Source of the DNA: a virus
Direction: 5' to 3' (one strand)
Virus record (IMG/VR): IMGVR_UViG_3300046474_000239
Span: 40,449 to 104,448 of that record
DNA length: 64,000 nucleotides
A model generated the notes under the pieces. It had not been told where the DNA came from. It saw nothing but the letters and a program-made list of their open reading frames with translations, and did no database searches. Position numbers and translations under genes: made by a program. This document shows, one piece after another, positions 14,620 through 60,588 of the stretch. Position 1 is the stretch's first letter. The number at the start of each line of letters is the position of its first letter.

Positions 14620-15408
14620 ATGGACCCCAAGGCCCGTCTTGAGAAGAACTTCGCATCTGCCATCGTGGGGATGATGGACCGCAGCTACTTTCCATCCACC
14701 CTGCTTTGGGTAGAAACCAACAACCCTCGCGTGCGCGGCGTCGACCGGGACTGGCAAGTCTTCCTGCATGGCGTGGAGAACGGGGCCAAGGCCTCCCTTG
14801 AGCGGATACAGCCCACGATTGAGCGTGGCGAAGACGCCGTTGTAAAGTGCTTCACGCACCTGGAAAACGCCCTGGCCAAGAGCGATGACCTGAGCGTTGG
14901 CGCCTTGGAGGACTTACTGGCTGCCCGCAACGTGATGACCGAGTACACCCAGTTCGTCTGGAAGGGCTTCTACAACGCGCTGAAGGACTGGGCATCGGGT
15001 GTACTGGGCCTACAGGTTGATCGCCTGGGAGCGAGCGCTGAGACGGAGACTGCCGCCCTGGCTGCGATTCTCATGGGCATACTTCAGCAAGACGCCTACC
15101 ACCCGTTCTTCGGATGGGCGCTGGCCACTTACAAGGATCGCCGCGACATCCACATCTCGGATCTGCGGGAGGTGACGGTCCAGTACTTGCGCACGCCTCC
15201 TACCGATAAGGAGATGTTGGACCTGCTCAACGCCATGAACGTACAGTCGGCGGTAGGCCAGTACCTGAAGTGGGCTCGCCTGGAGTACAAGGAGGTGAAA
15301 CAGAAAGTTATGGAGAAAAGCCATGGCATGACTCTGCCGAGGGCGGAGCTGTCTGAGTGGATCGCGACGGCGCTGTTCAACGAGGGCGAGGATGATGACG
15401 ACGAGTAA
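14620..15408 (+). CDS. hypothetical helical protein with acidic tail
   Basis: GAGGA RBS before ATG 14620. Confidence 0.65.
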   Translation: MDPKARLEKNFASAIVGMMDRSYFPSTLLWVETNNPRVRGVDRDWQVFLHGVENGAKASLERIQPTIERGEDAVVKCFTHLENALAKSDDLSVGALEDLLAARNVMTEYTQFVWKGFYNALKDWASGVLGLQVDRLGASAETETAALAAILMGILQQDAYHPFFGWALATYKDRRDIHISDLREVTVQYLRTPPTDKEMLDLLNAMNVQSAVGQYLKWARLEYKEVKQKVMEKSHGMTLPRAELSEWIATALFNEGEDDDDE

Positions 15409-15661
15409 ACGCGATAACCCTTGCAACGACCTTGACGACACAGTCAAGGAGATCCCCGAGTTCATTGACTTGGCGCGGGAGGTGTTGAAGGGGTGGGAGG
15501 CAGGTAAGACCTTCTTGCTACCCACCGTTGCAAAGGGCCTGCGTGACGCCTACGAGATGGGCCGCAAGGGCAAGCGACCGAAGGTCAAAGCTCGGGAGGA
15601 AGAACCCGAGGAAGAAGAGCAACCGACCCCGGCAGTGCGTCGAGTACGGCGAACCCGGTAA
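15392..15661 (+). CDS. hypothetical protein ending RRVRRTR
   Basis: overlapping start; acidic patch then Arg tag. Confidence 0.6.
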   Translation: MMTTSKRDNPCNDLDDTVKEIPEFIDLAREVLKGWEAGKTFLLPTVAKGLRDAYEMGRKGKRPKVKAREEEPEEEEQPTPAVRRVRRTR

Positions 15662-48894: not shown

Positions 48895-48908
48895 CCGGCC
48901 AAACAGAG

Positions 48909-48932
48909 ACCCGCTTCGGCGGGTTTTCTTTT
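48909..48932 (+). terminator. rho-independent terminator ending lysis module
   Basis: ACCCGC-TTCG-GCGGGT-TTTCTTTT. Confidence 0.85.
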
Positions 48933-48943
48933 GTCCAGTGTTT

Positions 48944-48971
48944 TTGATTAATCTTACAATTTTGATATTAT
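48944..48971 (+). promoter_or_regulatory. sigma70-like promoter of the AAA operon
   Basis: TTGATT(48944-49)-16 bp-TATTAT(48966-71) with extended TG; AT-rich. Confidence 0.6.
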
Positions 48972-48984
48972 AGGGATGTCGTCG

Positions 48985-48998
48985 TGCAATTGATTGCA
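48985..48998. repeat. 14-bp motif copy 16 (TGCAATTGATTGCA)
   Basis: exact, just downstream of predicted TSS (operator-like position). Confidence 0.95.
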
Positions 48999-49057
48999 CC
49001 GACCTGGTCTTTAAAGACTGAGCCTTTCCGGCTCCAACCAAGCTCAAGGAAAACAAC

Positions 49058-50755
49058 ATGACCACACCAGCAGTCTCCACCCTCGGCACGTCCGAGCAGC
49101 AACTAATGGACAGCGTGTACAAGCTCTCGGATGCCGGGGGTTCGATTATCCAGATCCGTTCGCGGGAGGTTCCGCGTACCTTGACGACCCTGCGCAAATC
49201 CATCCTGGCGGACGACACCAACGTCTACAAGGAATGGGACCAGATCAACGGGTGGCGCAACATCTTCAGTCTGGAGAACTTCAGCGAGCACATCACGCCT
49301 GGCGACAGTCAGTTGGACTATGACACCGCAGTCCTGGCGCCGATGAACGATATGCGCAACGCGACCAGCGCGGTAAATGCGGACAGCGACAAGATGCACT
49401 ACTTCATCTATGTCGACTTCCACACCTTCATCGAAGGCAACCCACGGATCATTGCCGCGATGCAGCAGTACGCCGCAGTCCTGCCCGCTCGTAACGTCTG
49501 CATCATCCTGCTCACGCCGGAGGTCAACTTGAGCGACCTGCCACTGGGCACCGTCCTGTCCGTCGACGCACCTACCCCTACGGCTGAAGAGCTGGAAGGT
49601 TGCTTGCGCCGCCTGGTAGAAGCCAGCTCCGATGCCTGGCCCGAAGAGCTGGACATCAAGGACGCCGACTATCACCTGATCAGCCACCTCGGCCTGGGCA
49701 TGACACGCTACGAGTTCGAGACGTATGCATCCATCGCCATCGTCGAAGCGGGGCACAAGAAAGACCCAATGCTGACCGCCGAAGACCTGGTTCACGGCAT
49801 CAGCGTGGGTAAGACCGAGGTCGTGAAACAGTCCGACATCCTGGAGCTGTTCCACACCGAGGACATGAGCGAAGTGGGCGGCATGCAGCGCTTGAAGGAC
49901 TGGATCAACAACCGGGCGGACGCCTTCAGCGACGAGGCCCAAGAGTTCGGCGTGGAAGCACCGAAGGGTATTGCTATCGTCGGCGTGCCAGGCACCGGTA
50001 AGTCCCTCGTAGCCAAGGCCATCGCCAGCGCCCTGAACGCCCCACTCCTGCGCCTCGACTTCGGCCGGGTCTTCAGCAAGTTCATCGGCGACTCCGAAAG
50101 CCGTATGCGCTCCGCCTTGAAGATGGTTGAGTCCATGGGCCACCTGGTTCTGTTCGCGGACGAGATCGACAAGGGTCTGGGCGGTATTGGCCAGGGCGGC
50201 GGCGACAGCGGCACCAGCTCCCGCGTACTGGGTGCGTTCCTCACCTGGATGCAGGAGAACAAGTCCAAGGTCTTCGTTATCGTGACCGCCAACCGTATCG
50301 ACGGCCTGCCGCCTGAGCTGTTCCGCAAGGGCCGCCTGGACCAAGTCTTCTCGGTAGGCCTGCCGTCACCGGCCGAGCGCGTCGAAGTCCTGGAAGTGCA
50401 CTTGCGCAAACGCGGGCGGGACATCAATGACTTCACCGACAAGGAAGTCAATGCGTTCAAGGCCGCCAGCGAAGGCCGGGTGCCCGCAGAGATCGAAGCA
50501 TCTGTAAAGGATGGCCTGGTCTCCGCGTTCAACGATGACGATGCACAGGACCTGGAGATGCACCACATCATCGACGCGCTCGAAGAGTCGGTGCCTATGT
50601 CCAAGTCTCACGCTACCGCCATCAATGCCATGGTCGAATGGGCTCGCGACAATGCCACGCCCGTCAACTACGAAGACGTGCCGGTAGTACCAAAGTCCGC
50701 TGGCCCAGGCGGGGAACCAGTACGCCGCAGCGTAGTACGTCCACGCCGAGTCTGA
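49058..50755 (+). CDS. Ycf46-like AAA+ ATPase
   Basis: VGGMQRLKDW, PKGIAIVGVPGTGKS (Walker A), LRLDFG, VLFADEIDKG (Walker B), GDSGTSSRV.G.FLTWMQE, TANRIDGLPPELFRKGRLD; degenerate N-terminal AAA domain. Confidence 0.88.
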   Translation: MTTPAVSTLGTSEQQLMDSVYKLSDAGGSIIQIRSREVPRTLTTLRKSILADDTNVYKEWDQINGWRNIFSLENFSEHITPGDSQLDYDTAVLAPMNDMRNATSAVNADSDKMHYFIYVDFHTFIEGNPRIIAAMQQYAAVLPARNVCIILLTPEVNLSDLPLGTVLSVDAPTPTAEELEGCLRRLVEASSDAWPEELDIKDADYHLISHLGLGMTRYEFETYASIAIVEAGHKKDPMLTAEDLVHGISVGKTEVVKQSDILELFHTEDMSEVGGMQRLKDWINNRADAFSDEAQEFGVEAPKGIAIVGVPGTGKSLVAKAIASALNAPLLRLDFGRVFSKFIGDSESRMRSALKMVESMGHLVLFADEIDKGLGGIGQGGGDSGTSSRVLGAFLTWMQENKSKVFVIVTANRIDGLPPELFRKGRLDQVFSVGLPSPAERVEVLEVHLRKRGRDINDFTDKEVNAFKAASEGRVPAEIEASVKDGLVSAFNDDDAQDLEMHHIIDALEESVPMSKSHATAINAMVEWARDNATPVNYEDVPVVPKSAGPGGEPVRRSVVRPRRV

Positions 50756-50765
50756 GGAGAGCGCC

Positions 50766-51386
50766 ATGAGCGACGGCACACAACGGGTCAGCCTGACCTA
50801 CGGGAAAGTCAACCTGAAGAACTCCAGCCTTACGCTGGCCAGCCTTCGGATTACGGCCCCGTTCAAACGTGAATCGGCTGCTAACACCGGCCGAGCCGAA
50901 CAATACTCGAAGGAGTACATCCAGAGCACCCGCTACCGTGACATCGGCGGCGGCTTCACCAGGCAGCGCGTGATTCACCCTTCGGGGACATTGCTGAGCG
51001 TGCAGGCGACGAAGACCAAGAACGGCGTTCTCAACGCAGAAGCGGTGATCCTGCTCCGGCTGCGCACAGGGGCGGACATGCTCTCGATCAACATCAAGCT
51101 GCCAACCAGCCCAGACAGCCTCCTGGGGGATACCCTCCAGGCGTTTGTCGGGGAGGCAGACATCATTAGCTGGGAAGAGCTGCGGATCCTGGGCATCGAC
51201 TGCCCGAAGTCCTACCAGAACCGCTACGGTAACGAAGACGAGATAGACGAGCTGCTGGAGGTCAACGTGGTCCGCAGGGGCAACATCAGCAAACCACAGC
51301 TCGTAGCCGTCTCCACGTCGGAAGGCACCGTGGTCCGGGCGGTGGGTACTGAGGCGGTTCGCCGCGTCAAGATAAGGAGGCACTGA
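50766..51386 (+). CDS. hypothetical protein
   Basis: GAGGAG RBS; ends RRVKIRRH. Confidence 0.65.
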   Translation: MSDGTQRVSLTYGKVNLKNSSLTLASLRITAPFKRESAANTGRAEQYSKEYIQSTRYRDIGGGFTRQRVIHPSGTLLSVQATKTKNGVLNAEAVILLRLRTGADMLSINIKLPTSPDSLLGDTLQAFVGEADIISWEELRILGIDCPKSYQNRYGNEDEIDELLEVNVVRRGNISKPQLVAVSTSEGTVVRAVGTEAVRRVKIRRH

Positions 51387-51387
51387 C

Positions 51388-52371
51388 ATGTCGAACGACG
51401 ACGACGACGAGATAAGGGGTACTGCGGACTTTCCTACGCTGAGTGCCCAGGTGGCCCAGGCGCTGCTCGACGACCCGCCGCCGCCAAACCCTGCGCTTAT
51501 GCGTCTGCTATCCACTGAGCGGAGCGGTAGACAACCAGACCCGCCGAACTACCAGTCAATGCCGGACCCCGGACAGTCACCCTTCGATAGAGCGTTCGTG
51601 GAAGTGCGTAGGGCGACGGAGAACATTGCGCTGGGGTTAGCTGGCGTAGGGCGGGCCACCTACGCTCAGCGTATCAACGAGATGGCCCGCAGGGTGGACC
51701 CACGGCTGAACGAGTTCCGCATGACTCTGCCGGGCGGGGTCATCCAGTCAGTTCAGATGGAGCGGGTGGTAGCCCAGGCTAGGTACGACTACCACCATGT
51801 AGAACACACCATGGTGAGCCTGGGCAACCCGTTCAACGGGTCGATGGGCCAGGAGATCTTCAACCGGATACAAGTCGCCACGGGAGGAAACAGGGAGCTG
51901 CTCCAGTTAATGCCCGCTATCCTAAACCAGTTCCAGGGCGCACAAGGTTCCACCGCTCGCGACCAGATGGTACTGGCGACCTGCATAATGCTCCTGGTCG
52001 AGGATGACGCTTGGCACGACTCCGGGATGAACAACGTCACCGGGTACGAGTTCCAGGTGGATCGAGACATCAGGACCATGGAGCACCACCTCGTCATGCA
52101 CGGGCGGAGGGCGGTCGACACTGCCCAGCAGCTCATGAATGCGAGTGGCCCGGCACGCAATGCGGCCAGCACCTACACCGAGTCACTGCGGCCGTCGCGT
52201 CCAACGGAGAAGAAAGCCCCAGAGTTGCCTAAAGCGCCAACCGGCCGCAGGCTGCGACTGGGTAAGGCAGTAAGCAACGTAGAACCAGGGGATGTCAGTG
52301 TCCCTACACAACCCTCGTCCGATGGGCGAGAATCGACTCGTAAGGTAAATCTCCGCAAGCGGCGGACCTAA
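51388..52371 (+). CDS. hypothetical protein with Arg-rich C-terminus
   Basis: AAGGAGG RBS. Confidence 0.6.
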   Translation: MSNDDDDEIRGTADFPTLSAQVAQALLDDPPPPNPALMRLLSTERSGRQPDPPNYQSMPDPGQSPFDRAFVEVRRATENIALGLAGVGRATYAQRINEMARRVDPRLNEFRMTLPGGVIQSVQMERVVAQARYDYHHVEHTMVSLGNPFNGSMGQEIFNRIQVATGGNRELLQLMPAILNQFQGAQGSTARDQMVLATCIMLLVEDDAWHDSGMNNVTGYEFQVDRDIRTMEHHLVMHGRRAVDTAQQLMNASGPARNAASTYTESLRPSRPTEKKAPELPKAPTGRRLRLGKAVSNVEPGDVSVPTQPSSDGRESTRKVNLRKRRT

Positions 52372-52378
52372 ATCAAAG

Positions 52379-52392
52379 TGCAATCAATTGCA
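52379..52392. repeat. 14-bp motif copy 17 (TGCAATCAATTGCA)
   Basis: exact, just before GGAGG RBS of the DUF1257 gene. Confidence 0.95.
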
Positions 52393-52404
52393 CGGGAGGA
52401 AGAT

Positions 52405-52848
52405 GTGTCTCACACCAGCGCAGTCAAAGCCATCGCAATCAGCTCCATTGAGTCCCTGCAAGCTGCGATCACCGAGCTGAACAGCATGGGCGTAAAGTGC
52501 AGCCTGATCGCCAACGCCAAACCTCGTGCCTACTTCCAGAACCAGGAAGGCATGGGTCAAGCCGACTTCGTAATCAAGCTGGATGACAGCCGTTACGACG
52601 TAGGCCTGTACAAGACTCCCTCGGGCGGTTACGAGGCTCGCACCGACTGGTTCGGCCAGGACGTGGAGAAGATCCTCGGCACCAAGAACTACAACAAGGG
52701 CAACCAGGAGCAGGCCAAGCTGGGCAAGTTGTTCCAGATGTATGGCGTGCACGCGGCGATGAACGAAGCCCGCCGCAAGGGGCTCCAGGCTACCCGCCAG
52801 AAAGGCGCGGACGGCAAGGAACAAGTGATAATTACGGGCTACCGCTAA
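52405..52848 (+). CDS. DUF1257 (Ycf35-like) domain protein
   Basis: GTG start; MSHTSAVK....ESLQAA..EL, ADFVI, YDVGL.....GGY....DW, L.Q.Y.......EARRKG. Confidence 0.75.
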   Translation: MSHTSAVKAIAISSIESLQAAITELNSMGVKCSLIANAKPRAYFQNQEGMGQADFVIKLDDSRYDVGLYKTPSGGYEARTDWFGQDVEKILGTKNYNKGNQEQAKLGKLFQMYGVHAAMNEARRKGLQATRQKGADGKEQVIITGYR

Positions 52849-52891
52849 CAGTCGGTAGAAACTCCCCACCCACAACCAGTAGGACACCATC

Positions 52892-53092
52892 ATGCAGAAG
52901 CGAGTAGTTGTCACCGTGGACCCGGACGGGACCACCTCCATCGACGCCCAGAACTTCAAGGGCAAAGGCTGCCAAGATGCGACCGAGCAAGTTGCCCTGG
53001 CCTTGGGCGGCGTAACCCGCGATAAGTCGGATGACCGTAAAAAGCCCGATTACTTCGCGACCAACCCCGGCACCAACACCCTGAAGGGCTAA
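52892..53092 (+). CDS. DUF2997 domain protein
   Basis: VTVDPDGTTSIDAQNFKGKGCQDATEQVALALG......KKPDYF. Confidence 0.8.
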   Translation: MQKRVVVTVDPDGTTSIDAQNFKGKGCQDATEQVALALGGVTRDKSDDRKKPDYFATNPGTNTLKG

Positions 53093-53096
53093 GGCC

Positions 53097-53492
53097 ATGA
53101 AGGACGAGAAGGAGATGGACATGGGAATGCTATCGAACAACCTCGACAAACCGCAGGATGCTTTGGTGATCACGTTCGATGAATTCGGCGCGGCCGAGTC
53201 ATTGCACATTGATCAATTCGACCTGGGGTTCCTGGGGAGCAAGAAGATCACGCGAGCTACGGACATCCTGTTTGACGAGGCTTCGCAGTCCTGGACCATC
53301 TACCTTCTCACTGAAGGTAAAGACCCAACCTTGCCCTGGAAGGGGTGCAAGGGTCTGCCGACCTACGAGGTCGCACGGTCTGTCGAAGTGGCCTGGCTGA
53401 ACCTCTGCCGAGTCAACGACGCGGACCCGAAGAGCGATACAGGGCATGTGTATTTGAACCAAGCTCGGAAGGTTAACGGTCTCGCAATTTGA
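53097..53492 (+). CDS. hypothetical protein resembling partners of Ycf46/DUF1257/DUF2997 operons
   Basis: ITFD..G....L....DL..LG...ITRA....F......W....A...EVAWL. Confidence 0.6.
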   Translation: MKDEKEMDMGMLSNNLDKPQDALVITFDEFGAAESLHIDQFDLGFLGSKKITRATDILFDEASQSWTIYLLTEGKDPTLPWKGCKGLPTYEVARSVEVAWLNLCRVNDADPKSDTGHVYLNQARKVNGLAI

Positions 53493-53508
53493 CACTTTCC
53501 CACCTTAT

Positions 53509-53529
53509 GCCCTCCTCGGAGGGCTTTTT
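53509..53529 (+). terminator. rho-independent terminator ending the AAA operon
   Basis: GCCCTC-CTCG-GAGGGC-TTTTT. Confidence 0.8.
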
Positions 53530-53543
53530 ATTAACTGGAGTAC

Positions 53544-53584
53544 ATCTTACCAAAATTGACCCACCCCGGTCAAAAAGGTAAGAT
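53544..53584. promoter_or_regulatory. palindromic sigma70-like promoter/operator of the replication operon
   Basis: TTGACC(53556-61)-17 bp-TAAGAT(53579-84); mirror image on minus strand. Confidence 0.7.
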
Positions 53585-56411: not shown

Positions 56412-57686
56412 ATGAGCACTGGACTTAAATTCCTGTCGGCTGCCATGGCCAACGGTGCCGGGAACGCGATCTTGCGTCTCGACGCCAACCTGCTCCACGA
56501 AGAGCAGGAGATCATGGCCTACGAGTTCATCAGGAACTTCTATCGGGATTACCGAGAATGCCCGACTGCCTCGGCGGTCCAGGAGCAGACAGGCATTCGA
56601 CTACCTCGGGCGGACGGACCGCTGAAGTTCCATGAGGACAGCCTTCACGAACGGTACGAGTTCGAGATCATGCGGGAGAGCTACCAGTCTCTCCGCGAGA
56701 TGGTCAAGGACGGCAGACCGCGCCCGATGCAGGAGGTGATGGAAAACACGATCCGTCGCATCCGTCGCACGCACCGAGGTCCTGGCCTGATCAACATCGG
56801 CGATGCGATGGAGCTGTCCATCGACCGTCTGCAAAACATGCAGATGCAGGGCGGTATGTCCGGGGTCCCGACTCCGTGGCGCACCCTGAACATCATCACC
56901 TCGGGCTACCAGAACGGCGACCTGATCACCTGGGTGGGGCGGACCTCCCTGGGTAAAACGATGATGCTCCTGCACCAAGCGGAGTACGCTTACGATGCCG
57001 GGTACTCGGTCCTGTTCGTAACAACCGAGATGGCTGCCGAGGCAATCGCTCGACGCTGGATGGCGATGAAGTGGGGCTTCGATCCAGAGGCCCTGAAGAA
57101 CGCCCAGGTGTCGACCTACACGCTGCGCAAGATGCGAGCCCTCAATGCTGAGTTGCTCGGGCGGGAACGCTTCCGCCTACTGCCTGCCGGGATGAACTCT
57201 GACCTGTCAATCGTTGAAGCAGCAATCGACGAGATGCAGCCGGACATCCTGTTCCTCGACGGTGTGTACCTGATGAAGCCCAGCGGCAAGCAAGTACACC
57301 GCAGCAAGACCGAACAGGTCTCGGCAGTGTTCGACGAACTGAAGCAACGCAACATCGACGCCAACATCCCCTTCGTCGTGAACACGCAGTTCAGTCGACA
57401 AGCGGGTAAGGGCGGCAAGGACGGCAGCCTGGAATCCATCGGTCTGTCTGACACAATCGGTCAACACAGTTCCATCGTCATCGCGGTCAAGCCTGGCCCA
57501 ACCGACGATTGGAAGCGCTCCAGGGAACTGGACTTGCTCAAGGGTCGAGAAGGTGAAGAGGGTAAGGTCTACGTGAACTATTTGTTCAAGCCTACCAACC
57601 TCACTGAGATGACCGCAGCAGAGCTGGCAGCGGTACAGGAAGACTCCGGCCCGTCGATTGGGGCGGATGGCGAGATTTACAACTGA
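56412..57686 (+). CDS. dnaB: DnaB-like replicative helicase
   Basis: SGYQNGDLITWVGRTSLGKT, VLFVTTEM, FLDGVYL, TQFSR, KGREG. Confidence 0.9.
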   Translation: MSTGLKFLSAAMANGAGNAILRLDANLLHEEQEIMAYEFIRNFYRDYRECPTASAVQEQTGIRLPRADGPLKFHEDSLHERYEFEIMRESYQSLREMVKDGRPRPMQEVMENTIRRIRRTHRGPGLINIGDAMELSIDRLQNMQMQGGMSGVPTPWRTLNIITSGYQNGDLITWVGRTSLGKTMMLLHQAEYAYDAGYSVLFVTTEMAAEAIARRWMAMKWGFDPEALKNAQVSTYTLRKMRALNAELLGRERFRLLPAGMNSDLSIVEAAIDEMQPDILFLDGVYLMKPSGKQVHRSKTEQVSAVFDELKQRNIDANIPFVVNTQFSRQAGKGGKDGSLESIGLSDTIGQHSSIVIAVKPGPTDDWKRSRELDLLKGREGEEGKVYVNYLFKPTNLTEMTAAELAAVQEDSGPSIGADGEIYN

Positions 57687-57696
57687 GGACGAACCC

Positions 57697-60588
57697 ATGC
57701 CATGCGACACAACGTTGTGCCAAGGCTGCCCCATCGAAGGACTTCATAGGCCGGTAGAACCGACCGGCTTCGAGGACGCACCCTACCTGATCGTCACGGA
57801 CACCCCGAGCAAGGCCGGTGCCAAGGAAGGGCGGTTGATCCCTCCTGCATCGAACCTGATGCTGTTCAAGAATCTGGACAAGGAGGGCTTTGACCCCGAC
57901 GACTTCCAGGTGCACCCGTTGTGCCTCTGCGCCTATGACCAGAACCTGTACAAGAACACCGAGAAGAAGAAAATCCACAAGCACTGCCGTGCTCACCTGG
58001 AAGACTTCATCGACGAGGTTCGGCCGCGTGCGATCCTGCCCCTGGGTGCCGAAGCCGCGAGCCAGGTATTCAACAAGTCCACTAAGATCACGCAGGTGCG
58101 CGGTCTGGGTCACATGTCCGAAGAGTTCGGCGTACCCATCTTCCCGCTGATGTCCCCAGGCCTCGCTGTGATGTACGCGCAGAACGAACCGGTACTCGCC
58201 GCTGACTGCCGATCCTTCGGCCGCTTGGCAGATGCGAACTTCGACGTGGACGCTGCGGATGACTTCGTGACCGGTGAATACATAGAGATCGACGACCTAC
58301 AATTCCTGATCGACATGAAGCCAGAGCTGGTCTCATTCGACACCGAGACCACAGGTCTGCGTTGGTATCAGCGCGGGGTCAACGTGCGGACCTACGTCGA
58401 GTCTAAGCACAAGGGCAAGCCATGGTTCCAACCGCGCTTCCAGATCCTCACCATGCAGTTCACCGTGGAATCCGGTAAGGCGTATGTCCTGGTCTGGGAC
58501 CACCCAGAACGCCCGATACCCGAGGACCGTAAGCCTCGCCTACGCAACCAACTCCGCAAGCTGCTCTGCAACCCAGAAACGCTGGTAATCGGTCAGGGGC
58601 TCAAGTTCGATAACGTAGGCCTTTGGATGTCCGAAGGGATCCGCTTCGAGATCGGCGGCGACACCGCAATGCTGTGCGCTATCCACGACGAAAACCTGCC
58701 AGAGAAGAACCTCGACATCCTGACCAAGCTCCACGTCCCAGAGATGGCCGGGTACGCCGACCGGTTCAACACGACAGTGGACAAGTCGCGGATGTGGGAA
58801 GTGCCGATCAAGACGATGATCCCGTACGGCGGTGGCGACACCGACGCGGCGTTCCGCGTGTACGAGAAACTCGAAGACCTGGTAGCGGCGGATGCCAAGA
58901 ACTGGAACCACTACTGCGAGGTATCCATCCCAGGGCTGAACGCGATGGCTGGCCTGGAGACGCGAGGCATGTACGTCGACCTGGACCACGCCCTGCCAGA
59001 GTTCCAGACCTTCCTGGAAGCGGAGGTACTCAAGCAGCGGGACGCATTGCTGGCCCAGGTGCACCGCGACATCAAGCTGAAACATATCGAGCTGAAGAAG
59101 GGCAACGTCGAAGAGGCGCTCAAGCTGTCGCGCCAGGACTTCCTCAAGGACATCCTGTTCTACCATCCGAAGGGTTTCCGTCTGAAGCCAAAGGTCTTCA
59201 CCAAGACTACCGAGAAGCTGCCCGACCACATGAAGGAACCTTCATGCAGCTCGAAGGACCACCTGCCGTACTTCTTCGAAGACTGCCCGTTCACTTTCGA
59301 GCTGGCTGAGTACGTGAAGGACGCCACCCTGCTCAACAACAACGTGGTCAACTTCCAAGAAAAGTTCGTGGTCGACGGCATGGTTCGCCCGACGTACTTC
59401 CTGGACAAGGCGGTCACCCGGCGCACCAGCTCGAAAGACCCGAACGGCCAGAACTTCCCGAAGCGCGGCAAGAAAGCAAAGATGTACCAGAAGAGCTTTG
59501 TTGCTCCCGAGGGCTGGGTCGTCATCCAGTGCGACTTATCGCAGGCTGAGTTGCGCATCGCCGGGGACATGGCGAACGACCAAGAGATCATCAGGATCTA
59601 CAACGCCAACGGCGACATCCACATCACCACCGCTTGCCTGGCACTCAACGTCACTGAAGCGCAGTTCAAGTTACTGCCTGAGAAGGAGCGGAAGGACTGG
59701 CGTCAGAAGGCCAAGGCGATCAACTTCGGATTCATCTACGGCATGTCCTGGCGGAAATTTATGGTCTACGCCAAAACTCAATATGGCGTGGAGTTCACCG
59801 AGAAAGAAGCCAAGGCGATCCGTACCAACTACTTCAAAAAGTACAAGGGCCTGGCACGCTGGCACGAAGTCGTCAAAGCGTACGTCGCACAGCACGGCCA
59901 GATTCGCTCCTACAGCGGCCTGCTGCGCCACCTGCCACAGGTCAACAGCGAGGAGGAGTACATCCAGGCGGAAGCCATGCGCCAAGGCATCAACAGCCCG
60001 GTGCAAGAGTTCGGCTCAACCCTGGGCGTGATCAGCCTCGGGCGGATGAACGAAGAGATCGACCCCGAGTACATGCGCGTCTTCGGCTTCATCCACGATG
60101 CGATCTACGCCTACGTCCGGGAGGAGCATGTCGACTGGGGTCTCAAGGTTCTGAAGAGCTACATGCAGGGCAACGACCTGGAGAAACTTTTCGGCCGTAA
60201 AATGAAAGTGCCGATCATCGCTGACGCGGCCTTCGGCTGGAACCAGGGTGAGCTGTTCGAGCTGGGTGACTTCGGCGGGTTCAGCCTGACCGAACCGTAC
60301 GACTTCACGCAGATCAAAGACAAGGACGGCAAGCAGTTGGTAAACCTGCCCCGGCAGACCACTCCGCCTAACCGTGGACGCCTGCGGGGCTCGCCCTACA
60401 CCCTGGCTACAGACCTCGAAGATGAGACCGTGCAGCACATTGCCAGGCTTCGTCGGACAGGGGTGGGAGTTGCCAGTCGGCCAGGGGGCCGGACCACTAG
60501 CGCCAAGCGGATTGTCAGGCCTCCGCGTGTCGAGGAAGAGGCGCCATCGCCGACCCCAAGGCTCAGGCGCACTAGGGCTTCGGTGTAG
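57697..60588 (+). CDS. polA: family A DNA polymerase with N-terminal UDG-family-4-like domain and 3'-5' exonuclease
   Basis: CxxC Fe-S-type start, FDTETTG (ExoI), RTSSKDPNGQN, DLSQAELR (A), RQKAKAINFGFIYG (B), IHDA (C). Confidence 0.92.
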   Translation: MPCDTTLCQGCPIEGLHRPVEPTGFEDAPYLIVTDTPSKAGAKEGRLIPPASNLMLFKNLDKEGFDPDDFQVHPLCLCAYDQNLYKNTEKKKIHKHCRAHLEDFIDEVRPRAILPLGAEAASQVFNKSTKITQVRGLGHMSEEFGVPIFPLMSPGLAVMYAQNEPVLAADCRSFGRLADANFDVDAADDFVTGEYIEIDDLQFLIDMKPELVSFDTETTGLRWYQRGVNVRTYVESKHKGKPWFQPRFQILTMQFTVESGKAYVLVWDHPERPIPEDRKPRLRNQLRKLLCNPETLVIGQGLKFDNVGLWMSEGIRFEIGGDTAMLCAIHDENLPEKNLDILTKLHVPEMAGYADRFNTTVDKSRMWEVPIKTMIPYGGGDTDAAFRVYEKLEDLVAADAKNWNHYCEVSIPGLNAMAGLETRGMYVDLDHALPEFQTFLEAEVLKQRDALLAQVHRDIKLKHIELKKGNVEEALKLSRQDFLKDILFYHPKGFRLKPKVFTKTTEKLPDHMKEPSCSSKDHLPYFFEDCPFTFELAEYVKDATLLNNNVVNFQEKFVVDGMVRPTYFLDKAVTRRTSSKDPNGQNFPKRGKKAKMYQKSFVAPEGWVVIQCDLSQAELRIAGDMANDQEIIRIYNANGDIHITTACLALNVTEAQFKLLPEKERKDWRQKAKAINFGFIYGMSWRKFMVYAKTQYGVEFTEKEAKAIRTNYFKKYKGLARWHEVVKAYVAQHGQIRSYSGLLRHLPQVNSEEEYIQAEAMRQGINSPVQEFGSTLGVISLGRMNEEIDPEYMRVFGFIHDAIYAYVREEHVDWGLKVLKSYMQGNDLEKLFGRKMKVPIIADAAFGWNQGELFELGDFGGFSLTEPYDFTQIKDKDGKQLVNLPRQTTPPNRGRLRGSPYTLATDLEDETVQHIARLRRTGVGVASRPGGRTTSAKRIVRPPRVEEEAPSPTPRLRRTRASV

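Follow-up and report, generated by a model that had tools for sequence, protein, structure and literature searches.

For decades, ycf46 and ycf35 of plastid and cyanobacterial genomes have been listed as conserved open reading frames (ORFs) of unknown function. Among other AAA+ machines, p97 docks cofactors through its N-domain and a flexible C-terminal tail, and in ClpX/SspB and the HbYX proteasomal ATPases a short flexible C-terminal peptide docks proteins on the machine. The literature on DUF1257 (the Ycf35 family) and DUF2997 is sparse, and we found no paper describing these genes as one module. A cyanobacterial cluster duf2997-ycf35-fed7 has been published (PMC4284462), and essentially every Ycf35 protein is described as starting with MSH (PMC13060386). 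The cyanobacterial ycf46 operon shows induction dependent on guanosine tetraphosphate (ppGpp) under severe stress, with activity opposite to ribosomal gene expression (PMC13683863), a pattern that fits a remodeling role without defining it. Here we describe relatives of ycf46, ycf35 and DUF2997 in a compact, strictly co-conserved phage operon. It occupies positions 48944-53529 of a 64,000-nucleotide (nt) stretch of viral DNA (the window), which is itself positions 40449-104448 of IMG/VR record IMGVR_UViG_3300046474_000239, a complete phage record of 104,448 bp bounded by direct terminal repeats; the public sequencing runs listed as containing the stretch are rhizosphere and plant metagenomes, with no RNA run among them. 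On balance, we favor reading the operon as one protein-remodeling machine, a phage version of the cellular Ycf46/DUF1257 (Ycf35)/DUF2997 system with dedicated cofactors. AAA+ motors of this class, and dedicated cofactors as a principle, are already known; new here are the set of cofactors, the phage-specific additions and the mimicry of tails.

A phage operon with relatives of ycf46, ycf35 and DUF2997

The operon consists of six closely spaced ORFs, all on the + strand, with a predicted promoter at one end and a terminator-like hairpin at the other; successive genes are separated by 10, 1, 33, 43 and 4 nt. A first-pass annotation, made by a model from the sequence without database searches, had proposed a single promoter-to-terminator unit of six genes, and the ORF positions (gene starts included), the hairpins and the promoter site all agree with it.

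49058-50755, + strand: Ycf46-like classical AAA+ ATPase, 565 amino acids (aa); PF00004, phrog_8638
50766-51386, + strand: orfB, 206 aa, beta-rich core member of the cassette with a disordered basic C-terminal tail
51388-52371, + strand: orfC, 327 aa, in a hypervariable slot between orfB and DUF1257, with a basic C-terminal tail
52405-52848, + strand: DUF1257 (Ycf35-family) protein, 147 aa, with an MSH N-terminus; PF06868
52892-53092, + strand: DUF2997 protein, 66 aa, predicted partner of DUF1257; PF11211
53097-53492, + strand: orfF, 131 aa, fifth core member; phrog_38408 (5e-23)

In the machine we propose, the 565-aa protein would be the motor, a substrate-threading ATPase of the classical AAA+ clade that is presumably hexameric. 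The DUF1257 and DUF2997 proteins would form a heterodimer that serves the motor as cofactor or adaptor, and orfB and orfF would be phage additions to this three-gene core. A short C-terminal tail on orfB, and on slot proteins such as orfC, would copy that of the ATPase; all tails would dock on one common receptor within the machine, and orfB or the slot proteins would act as adaptors, clients or regulators. The unit would be transcribed from its own promoter, with a palindromic operator-like site, just ahead of the replication genes.

The ATPase is Ycf46-like, with a likeness that reaches beyond the AAA core. It is made up of an N-domain (residues ~1-270), the AAA core (~295-510), a Pro/Gly linker and a basic C-terminal tail, and it matches hidden Markov models (HMMs) of PF00004 (3e-28) and phrog_8638 (8e-158). 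Residues 116-535 align with a Nostoc protein (P0391), named 'stress-responsive protein Ycf46' by its sources, at 36% identity over 428 residues (E 5e-77), in line with the Ycf46 type assigned in the first pass. A profile of the phage family matched cyanobacterial proteins of 503-552 aa at ~1e-100, from profile position ~101-123 to 531 and so starting well before the AAA core; their source names were 'Uncharacterized AAA domain-containing protein ycf46' or 'stress-responsive protein Ycf46'.

The motor motifs are intact. Walker A (G309-x2-G312-x-G314-K315-S316), the Walker B residues D368 and E369, sensor-1 N412 and the arginine fingers R423 and R426 of the second region of homology were invariant among 14 aligned homologs. 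Pore loop 1 is K341-F-I-G344 in the window, where relatives show the column pattern K, F/Y, I/V, G. Since every motif of a substrate-threading AAA+ motor is in place, a protein-remodeling machine is the natural reading of this ATPase, and it would be expected to form hexamers and thread substrates. The AAA core is nearest to the D2 ring of Cdc48/VAT (1e-51 to 1e-52), and like Cdc48/p97/VAT the phage protein combines an intact pore loop and arginine fingers with an N-domain and a flexible C-terminal tail available for docking. Unlike them it has a single AAA ring rather than D1 and D2, its N-domain belongs to no Pfam family, and its cofactors lie outside the known p97-adaptor families. Two homologs (P0090 and P0112, 835-840 aa) contain inteins (PF14890). 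Inteins usually sit in important genes, which suggests that the ATPase gene matters to these phages.

The two small proteins named as DUF1257-like and DUF2997-like in the first pass both scored above their Pfam cut-offs, the HMM check that the annotation had itself proposed. The 52405 protein matched PF06868 at 26.1 bits (cut-off 22.2) over profile positions 18-102 only, and at 25.2 bits in a six-frame search. Its start, a GTG at 52405, is backed by the conserved N-terminus MSHT: M1 and S2 were invariant in 39 sequences, and S2, H3 and T4 were invariant among the eight closest. Because the Pfam match leaves these residues uncovered, MSHT is independent support for membership in the Ycf35 family. 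The 52892 protein matched PF11211 at 34.5 bits (cut-off 24.1) and shares one invariant Gly and one invariant Cys with phage and Nostoc sequences. The DUF1257 branch comprises 963 clusters at 50% identity, so the proposed machine would be widespread in uncultured phages.

To label the ORFs of each fetched viral locus, we used profiles of the window and its nearest relatives. The order AAA-orfB-DUF1257-DUF2997-orfF recurred in 24 other viral loci: 12 fetched via the ATPase, and all 12 of those fetched independently via a divergent DUF1257 subgroup, whose ATPases and partners are only distantly similar to those of the window. Cultured relatives include the Pseudomonas phages SM1 and PaMx31, Rhizobium phages, an Aeromonas phage and Rhodobacter phages, which opens the ycf46/ycf35 system to ordinary phage genetics. 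Rhodobacter phage RcKickapoo has AAA, DUF1257 and DUF2997, with unrecognizable proteins at the orfB and orfF positions. More distant ATPases (mycobacteriophage Firecracker, L015-L019) have other neighbors, and narrow-pattern contig scans with the ATPase alignment and with the DUF1257 subgroup yielded no relative. On the distant ATPase branch, Firecracker (L003, gp100-gp94) and L015 carry a different partner set, including a protein of ~262-266 aa with an acidic D-x-F-E-E tail and, a few genes downstream, a ParB-like protein.

The same three core genes are linked in cells. We sampled 61 Cyanobacteriota and 151 Planctomycetota genomes, reached via a HIP1-type DNA pattern and then searched whole. 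DUF1257 was present in 32 of the 61 Cyanobacteriota; comparing coordinates by hand, we found in 22 of these 32 a ycf46-like gene followed directly by a DUF1257 gene of the short subtype, on the same strand and within ~0.2-0.9 kb. A second cyanobacterial DUF1257 paralog, the canonical ycf35, adjoins DUF2997, in agreement with the published duf2997-ycf35-fed7 cluster (PMC4284462). One Nostoc contig has the order DUF1257-DUF2997-87aa-AAA, and the ATPase gene is also found on a plasmid of Nostoc sp. HK-01. Fourteen of the 151 Planctomycetota genomes bear DUF1257; AAA, DUF1257 and DUF2997 were contiguous in four of the five loci fetched, and in three other genomes DUF1257 lies inside a long open frame (655-714 aa). 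DUF1257 thus neighbors DUF2997 and/or a ycf46-like gene in the window operon, in cyanobacteria and in Planctomycetota. The first-pass annotation had pointed to such a co-occurrence in cyanobacteria and Planctomycetes and had predicted co-conservation in other genomes; the survey of bacterial and viral neighborhoods found both. Given the linkage in the sampled Cyanobacteriota and Planctomycetota, the three-gene core is a cellular gene set, taken up or shared by this phage lineage.

The phage genes resemble the cyanobacterial and plastid ycf46-ycf35-DUF2997 genes in ATPase sequence (the 36% identity above), in the MSH N-terminus, in the Gly and Cys of DUF2997 and in their linkage. They differ in forming one operon of five genes, whose extra core members orfB and orfF went undetected in 12 bacterial loci (no profile match at E 0.1, which is weak evidence as these proteins evolve fast). 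The phage DUF1257 is also longer (147 aa versus 116-128 aa), the phage ATPase has ~30 extra residues at each end, and the setting is a lytic-type siphophage, not a phototroph.

Some planctomycete loci showed further arrangements. In L177 (1483-3330, - strand) and L183 (1483-3180, - strand) proteins at least 565-615 aa long end in DUF1257 as their C-terminal domain, and no Pfam family matches their N-terminal 450-500 residues. Hsp70-like and vWA neighbors accompany planctomycete ycf46-like genes (L191, 3970-5547, + strand; L190, 9880-10713, + strand): at one locus an Hsp70-like gene ends 4 bp 5' of the ycf46-like gene, and at another a weak vWA match, below the Pfam cut-off, follows it.

Predicted pairing, phage-specific partners and shared tails

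A model of the DUF1257-DUF2997 complex scored 0.82, against 0.28 for the best of three controls. Among solved complexes 58 of 80 reached that mark, as did 2 of 110 mismatched pairs; these counts hold only roughly here because we used our own alignments. Runs agreed in at least 72% of contacts, with a partner pLDDT (predicted local distance difference test) of at least 56. Residues 2-15 of DUF2997, its N-terminal hairpin, are modeled as extending the DUF1257 sheet at the last strand of that sheet (136-147) and packing on the DUF1257 helix 107-125. The modeling supports the prediction that DUF1257 binds DUF2997. By itself, DUF1257 was modeled as an alpha/beta two-layer domain (pLDDT 92.5).

Two other roles for these small proteins were considered and dropped. 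DUF1257, which has an invariant N-terminal Ser-His, is without fold support as an N-terminal-nucleophile peptidase. A glycyl-radical carrier role of DUF2997 conflicts with the window protein, where Asn stands at the Gly-Phe position, and with the lack of a radical-SAM enzyme in the complete 104,448-bp genome (PF04055 and PF13353, no match at E 0.1).

The first-pass annotation had described orfB and orfC as two inserted orphans. Only orfC is variable; orfB is a conserved core member and not an insert, because AAA-orfB-DUF1257-DUF2997-orfF recurs across viral loci. Neither orfB nor orfC matches a family in Pfam, PHROGs, NCBIfam or PADLOC, and orfF has no Pfam family. The fold model of orfB (pLDDT 85.7) shows a beta-rich domain followed by a disordered tail. 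Neither the orfB nor the DUF1257 profile found anything in the PDB below E 0.07. An Atlas search returned nothing for orfB, and for orfF viral clusters plus one cluster rich in Planctomycetota; a word-indexed search with orfB retrieved only 14 clusters, all on phage-sized contigs (<=105 kb). No relation of orfF to DUF1257 or to orfB was found with hhalign. In many loci no gene occupies the slot between orfB and DUF1257, and in others the occupants are unrelated: the slot proteins of SM1 and L006 (~320 aa) are similar neither to orfC nor to one another. Between DUF2997 and orfF there is another variable slot.

Three consecutive proteins of the window end in the same kind of basic peptide: ...VRRSVVRPRRV in the ATPase, ...AVRRVKIRRH in orfB and ...TRKVNLRKRRT in orfC. 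The codons differ, which rejects DNA-level repeats as their origin and argues that the likeness is maintained at the protein level. ATPase and orfB tails co-vary between phages. Over 20 distinct loci, the best 6-residue score averaged 17.05 for tails of the same locus and 13.37 across loci, a difference reached by 1 of 20000 permutations, although the loci are related, so that the statistic is inflated and the permutation count is not a true probability. Examples of matching pairs follow, together with the one other likely gene of the 104-kb genome whose product closely copies the tail.

L033: ATPase tail GRVVDL, orfB tail GRVLDI
L029: ATPase tail REIDLG, orfB tail RGFDFG
L028: ATPase tail RRRAIN, orfB tail RRRAIS
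L013: ATPase tail RRRSV, orfB tail RRRSI
15392-15661, + strand: 89-aa protein of the structural region, with an acidic stretch, ending ...PAVRRVRRTR

The tail is also present on the slot proteins of L006 and SM1 and on the RcKickapoo protein that follows the ATPase; for comparison, a planctomycete Ycf46-like ATPase ends ...VRKIDI. Since the tails of the ATPase, orfB and slot proteins co-vary, they may be a short docking motif for one shared receptor. Such an arrangement would recall ClpX/SspB and the HbYX ATPases in that a tail is common to the ATPase, orfB and the slot proteins. It would differ from them in that the phage tail is unrelated in sequence to ClpX-binding or HbYX motifs and in that the ATPase itself is tailed. 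The operon offers two testable hypotheses: a DUF1257-DUF2997 heterodimer, and a co-evolving C-terminal docking tail on the motor and its phage-specific partners.

Weighing the proposed machine against other explanations

We infer from this evidence that the five proteins work as one machine, to which the shared tail attaches orfB and the slot proteins. Several points, besides the inflation of the tail statistic noted above, weigh against this reading. Gene order is kept across the whole phage lineage, far beyond the cassette, and phage synteny alone is therefore weak evidence. The folds give no functional clue, as neither model matched a known fold among solved structures (Foldseek, VIA-align): the best Z was 4.3 for orfB and 5.7 for DUF1257, the latter a weak KA1-/TBP-like likeness that we did not take as homology. 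Family searches recognized no peptidase, nuclease or other effector in the operon. Part of the orfB tail is overlapped by an AGGAGG Shine-Dalgarno sequence at the end of the gene, and the Arg-rich tails could simply bind nucleic acid. The cellular linkage of AAA, DUF1257 and DUF2997 rescues the one-machine argument from the weakness of phage synteny.

The position of the cassette between lysis and replication genes, noted in the first pass, is confirmed by a holin and an endolysin before it and an initiator and DnaB after it.

46025, upstream flank: holin
46891, upstream flank: endolysin
53614, downstream flank: winged helix-turn-helix protein
54452, downstream flank: RepO-like initiator
56412, downstream flank: DnaB
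57658-60588, + strand: fusion of a uracil-DNA glycosylase (UDG)-superfamily domain, a 3'-5' exonuclease and a family A DNA polymerase (PolA), 976 aa

This setting raises the possibility, in our view an unlikely one, that the cassette is a replication accessory that remodels the phage or host replicative helicase or an origin complex, for ring opening, loading or release. The freeing of DnaB from lambda P by the DnaK system would be a parallel. The cassette lies immediately 5' of the initiator-like gene, a ~200-aa gene, DnaB and the UDG-exonuclease-PolA fusion, and this placement directly ahead of replication genes is seen in the window as well as in all mapped loci of the divergent DUF1257 group; in L012 and L013, orfF directly abuts an initiator-sized gene. 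The adjacency may, however, merely mirror the conserved layout of one phage lineage. The window cassette has its own promoter and terminator, apart from the replication unit, and the cellular three-gene clusters were not beside replication genes in the loci examined. KaiC, a member of the RecA/DnaB superfamily of ring ATPases, provides a further argument. Cyanobacterial Ycf46 is reported to contact KaiC, but the report we draw on is second-hand (PMC13683863, citing its reference 55).

It is equally doubtful that the operon serves host takeover or counter-defense, with the motor unfolding host proteins such as defense or stress-response factors and the slot protein as an exchangeable arms-race adaptor. 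Host takeover, anti-defense and complex disassembly were the uses put forward in the first pass, and all three are conjectural. The contents of the slot would suit this, since close relatives have unrelated genes of similar size there, or none; three slot proteins keep the shared tail, as expected for interchangeable adaptors on one dock. The slot after DUF2997 is variable too, and the unit has its own promoter and lies outside the structural genes. Yet phages often carry variable slots, and the genes in them may be unrelated accessory genes (morons); since many cassette copies lack a slot gene, the core must be able to function in its absence. None of the proteins matches a known anti-defense family. 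The PADLOC matches are partial AAA-core matches to IetA only (66 bits), the NCBIfam IteA model scored 50 bits against a cut-off of 510, and PADLOC found neither an IetS protease nor any other of its families among the five neighbor proteins. The likeness to IetA-IetS is confined to the AAA core and far below cut-off, and the genes sit in a phage, not in a host defense island.

A bolder form of the five-protein machine, with interchangeable clients or adaptors plugged in by their tails and a DnaB/KaiC-type ring ATPase as the natural substrate, strikes us as a long shot. If it were true, the phage copy would open or load the replicative helicase, cellular Ycf46 and Ycf35 would act likewise on KaiC-like rings, and the plastid and cyanobacterial orphans ycf46 and ycf35 would gain a mechanism.

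That the genes share no function and are neighbors by descent only, the ATPase working alone or with host factors, is highly improbable: it would accommodate the lineage-wide gene order and the quite different neighbors of related ATPases in Firecracker and L015-L019, but the AAA/DUF1257/DUF2997 linkage in two bacterial phyla with differing gene orders, a DUF1257-DUF2997 model that passes its controls and the co-variation of ATPase and orfB tails speak against it.

Regulatory elements of the unit

The elements that delimit and punctuate the unit are the following, the palindromes being listed without a strand.

48906-48927, + strand: terminator-like hairpin CCCGCTTCGGCGGG closing the lysis unit, kept in relatives
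48944-48971, + strand: predicted sigma-70-like promoter TTGATT-16-TATTAT with TG before the -10 hexamer (consensus match only)
48984-48999: copy of a 16-bp palindrome, GTGCAATTGATTGCAC, in an operator-like position between the -10 hexamer and the ribosome-binding site (RBS)
49007-49018: second leader palindrome, 12 bp, GTCTTTAAAGAC, partly kept in L005 and SM1
52378-52393: second copy of the 16-bp palindrome, GTGCAATCAATTGCAC, just 5' of the DUF1257 RBS
53509-53524, + strand: terminator-like hairpin and T-run after orfF, ending the unit

The sigma-70-like promoter is at the same position in L005 and L006, and the 16-bp palindrome upstream of the ATPase gene is in the same place in L005, L006 and L007, with a variant in SM1. 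The order terminator, promoter, 16-bp palindrome, second palindrome and RBS is retained in relatives as distant as Pseudomonas phage SM1. The palindrome 5' of DUF1257 has the same place in L004 and L006.

The 16-bp palindrome GTGCAATNNATTGCAC occurs 19 times in the window against 0.08 expected, in both intergenic and intragenic positions (e.g. at 308, 776, 11822, 14487, 20359, 23355, 36144, 48984 and 52378). The first-pass annotation had seen both copies within the operon, and both are present; two copies per 4.6 kb is about the genome-wide density, so they are nothing special to the operon. A conserved phage DNA-binding protein probably recognizes the palindrome. The 14-bp core of the palindrome is also found in L006, L007 and L008, four times in RcKickapoo and once each in L015-L019.

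Just 3' of the operon terminator, at 53544-53584, a promoter scan matched both strands within one palindromic stretch (+ strand, TTGACC-17-TAAGAT; - strand, TTGACC-18-TAAGAT). Farther downstream, the UDG-exonuclease-PolA fusion has the same composition in L029.

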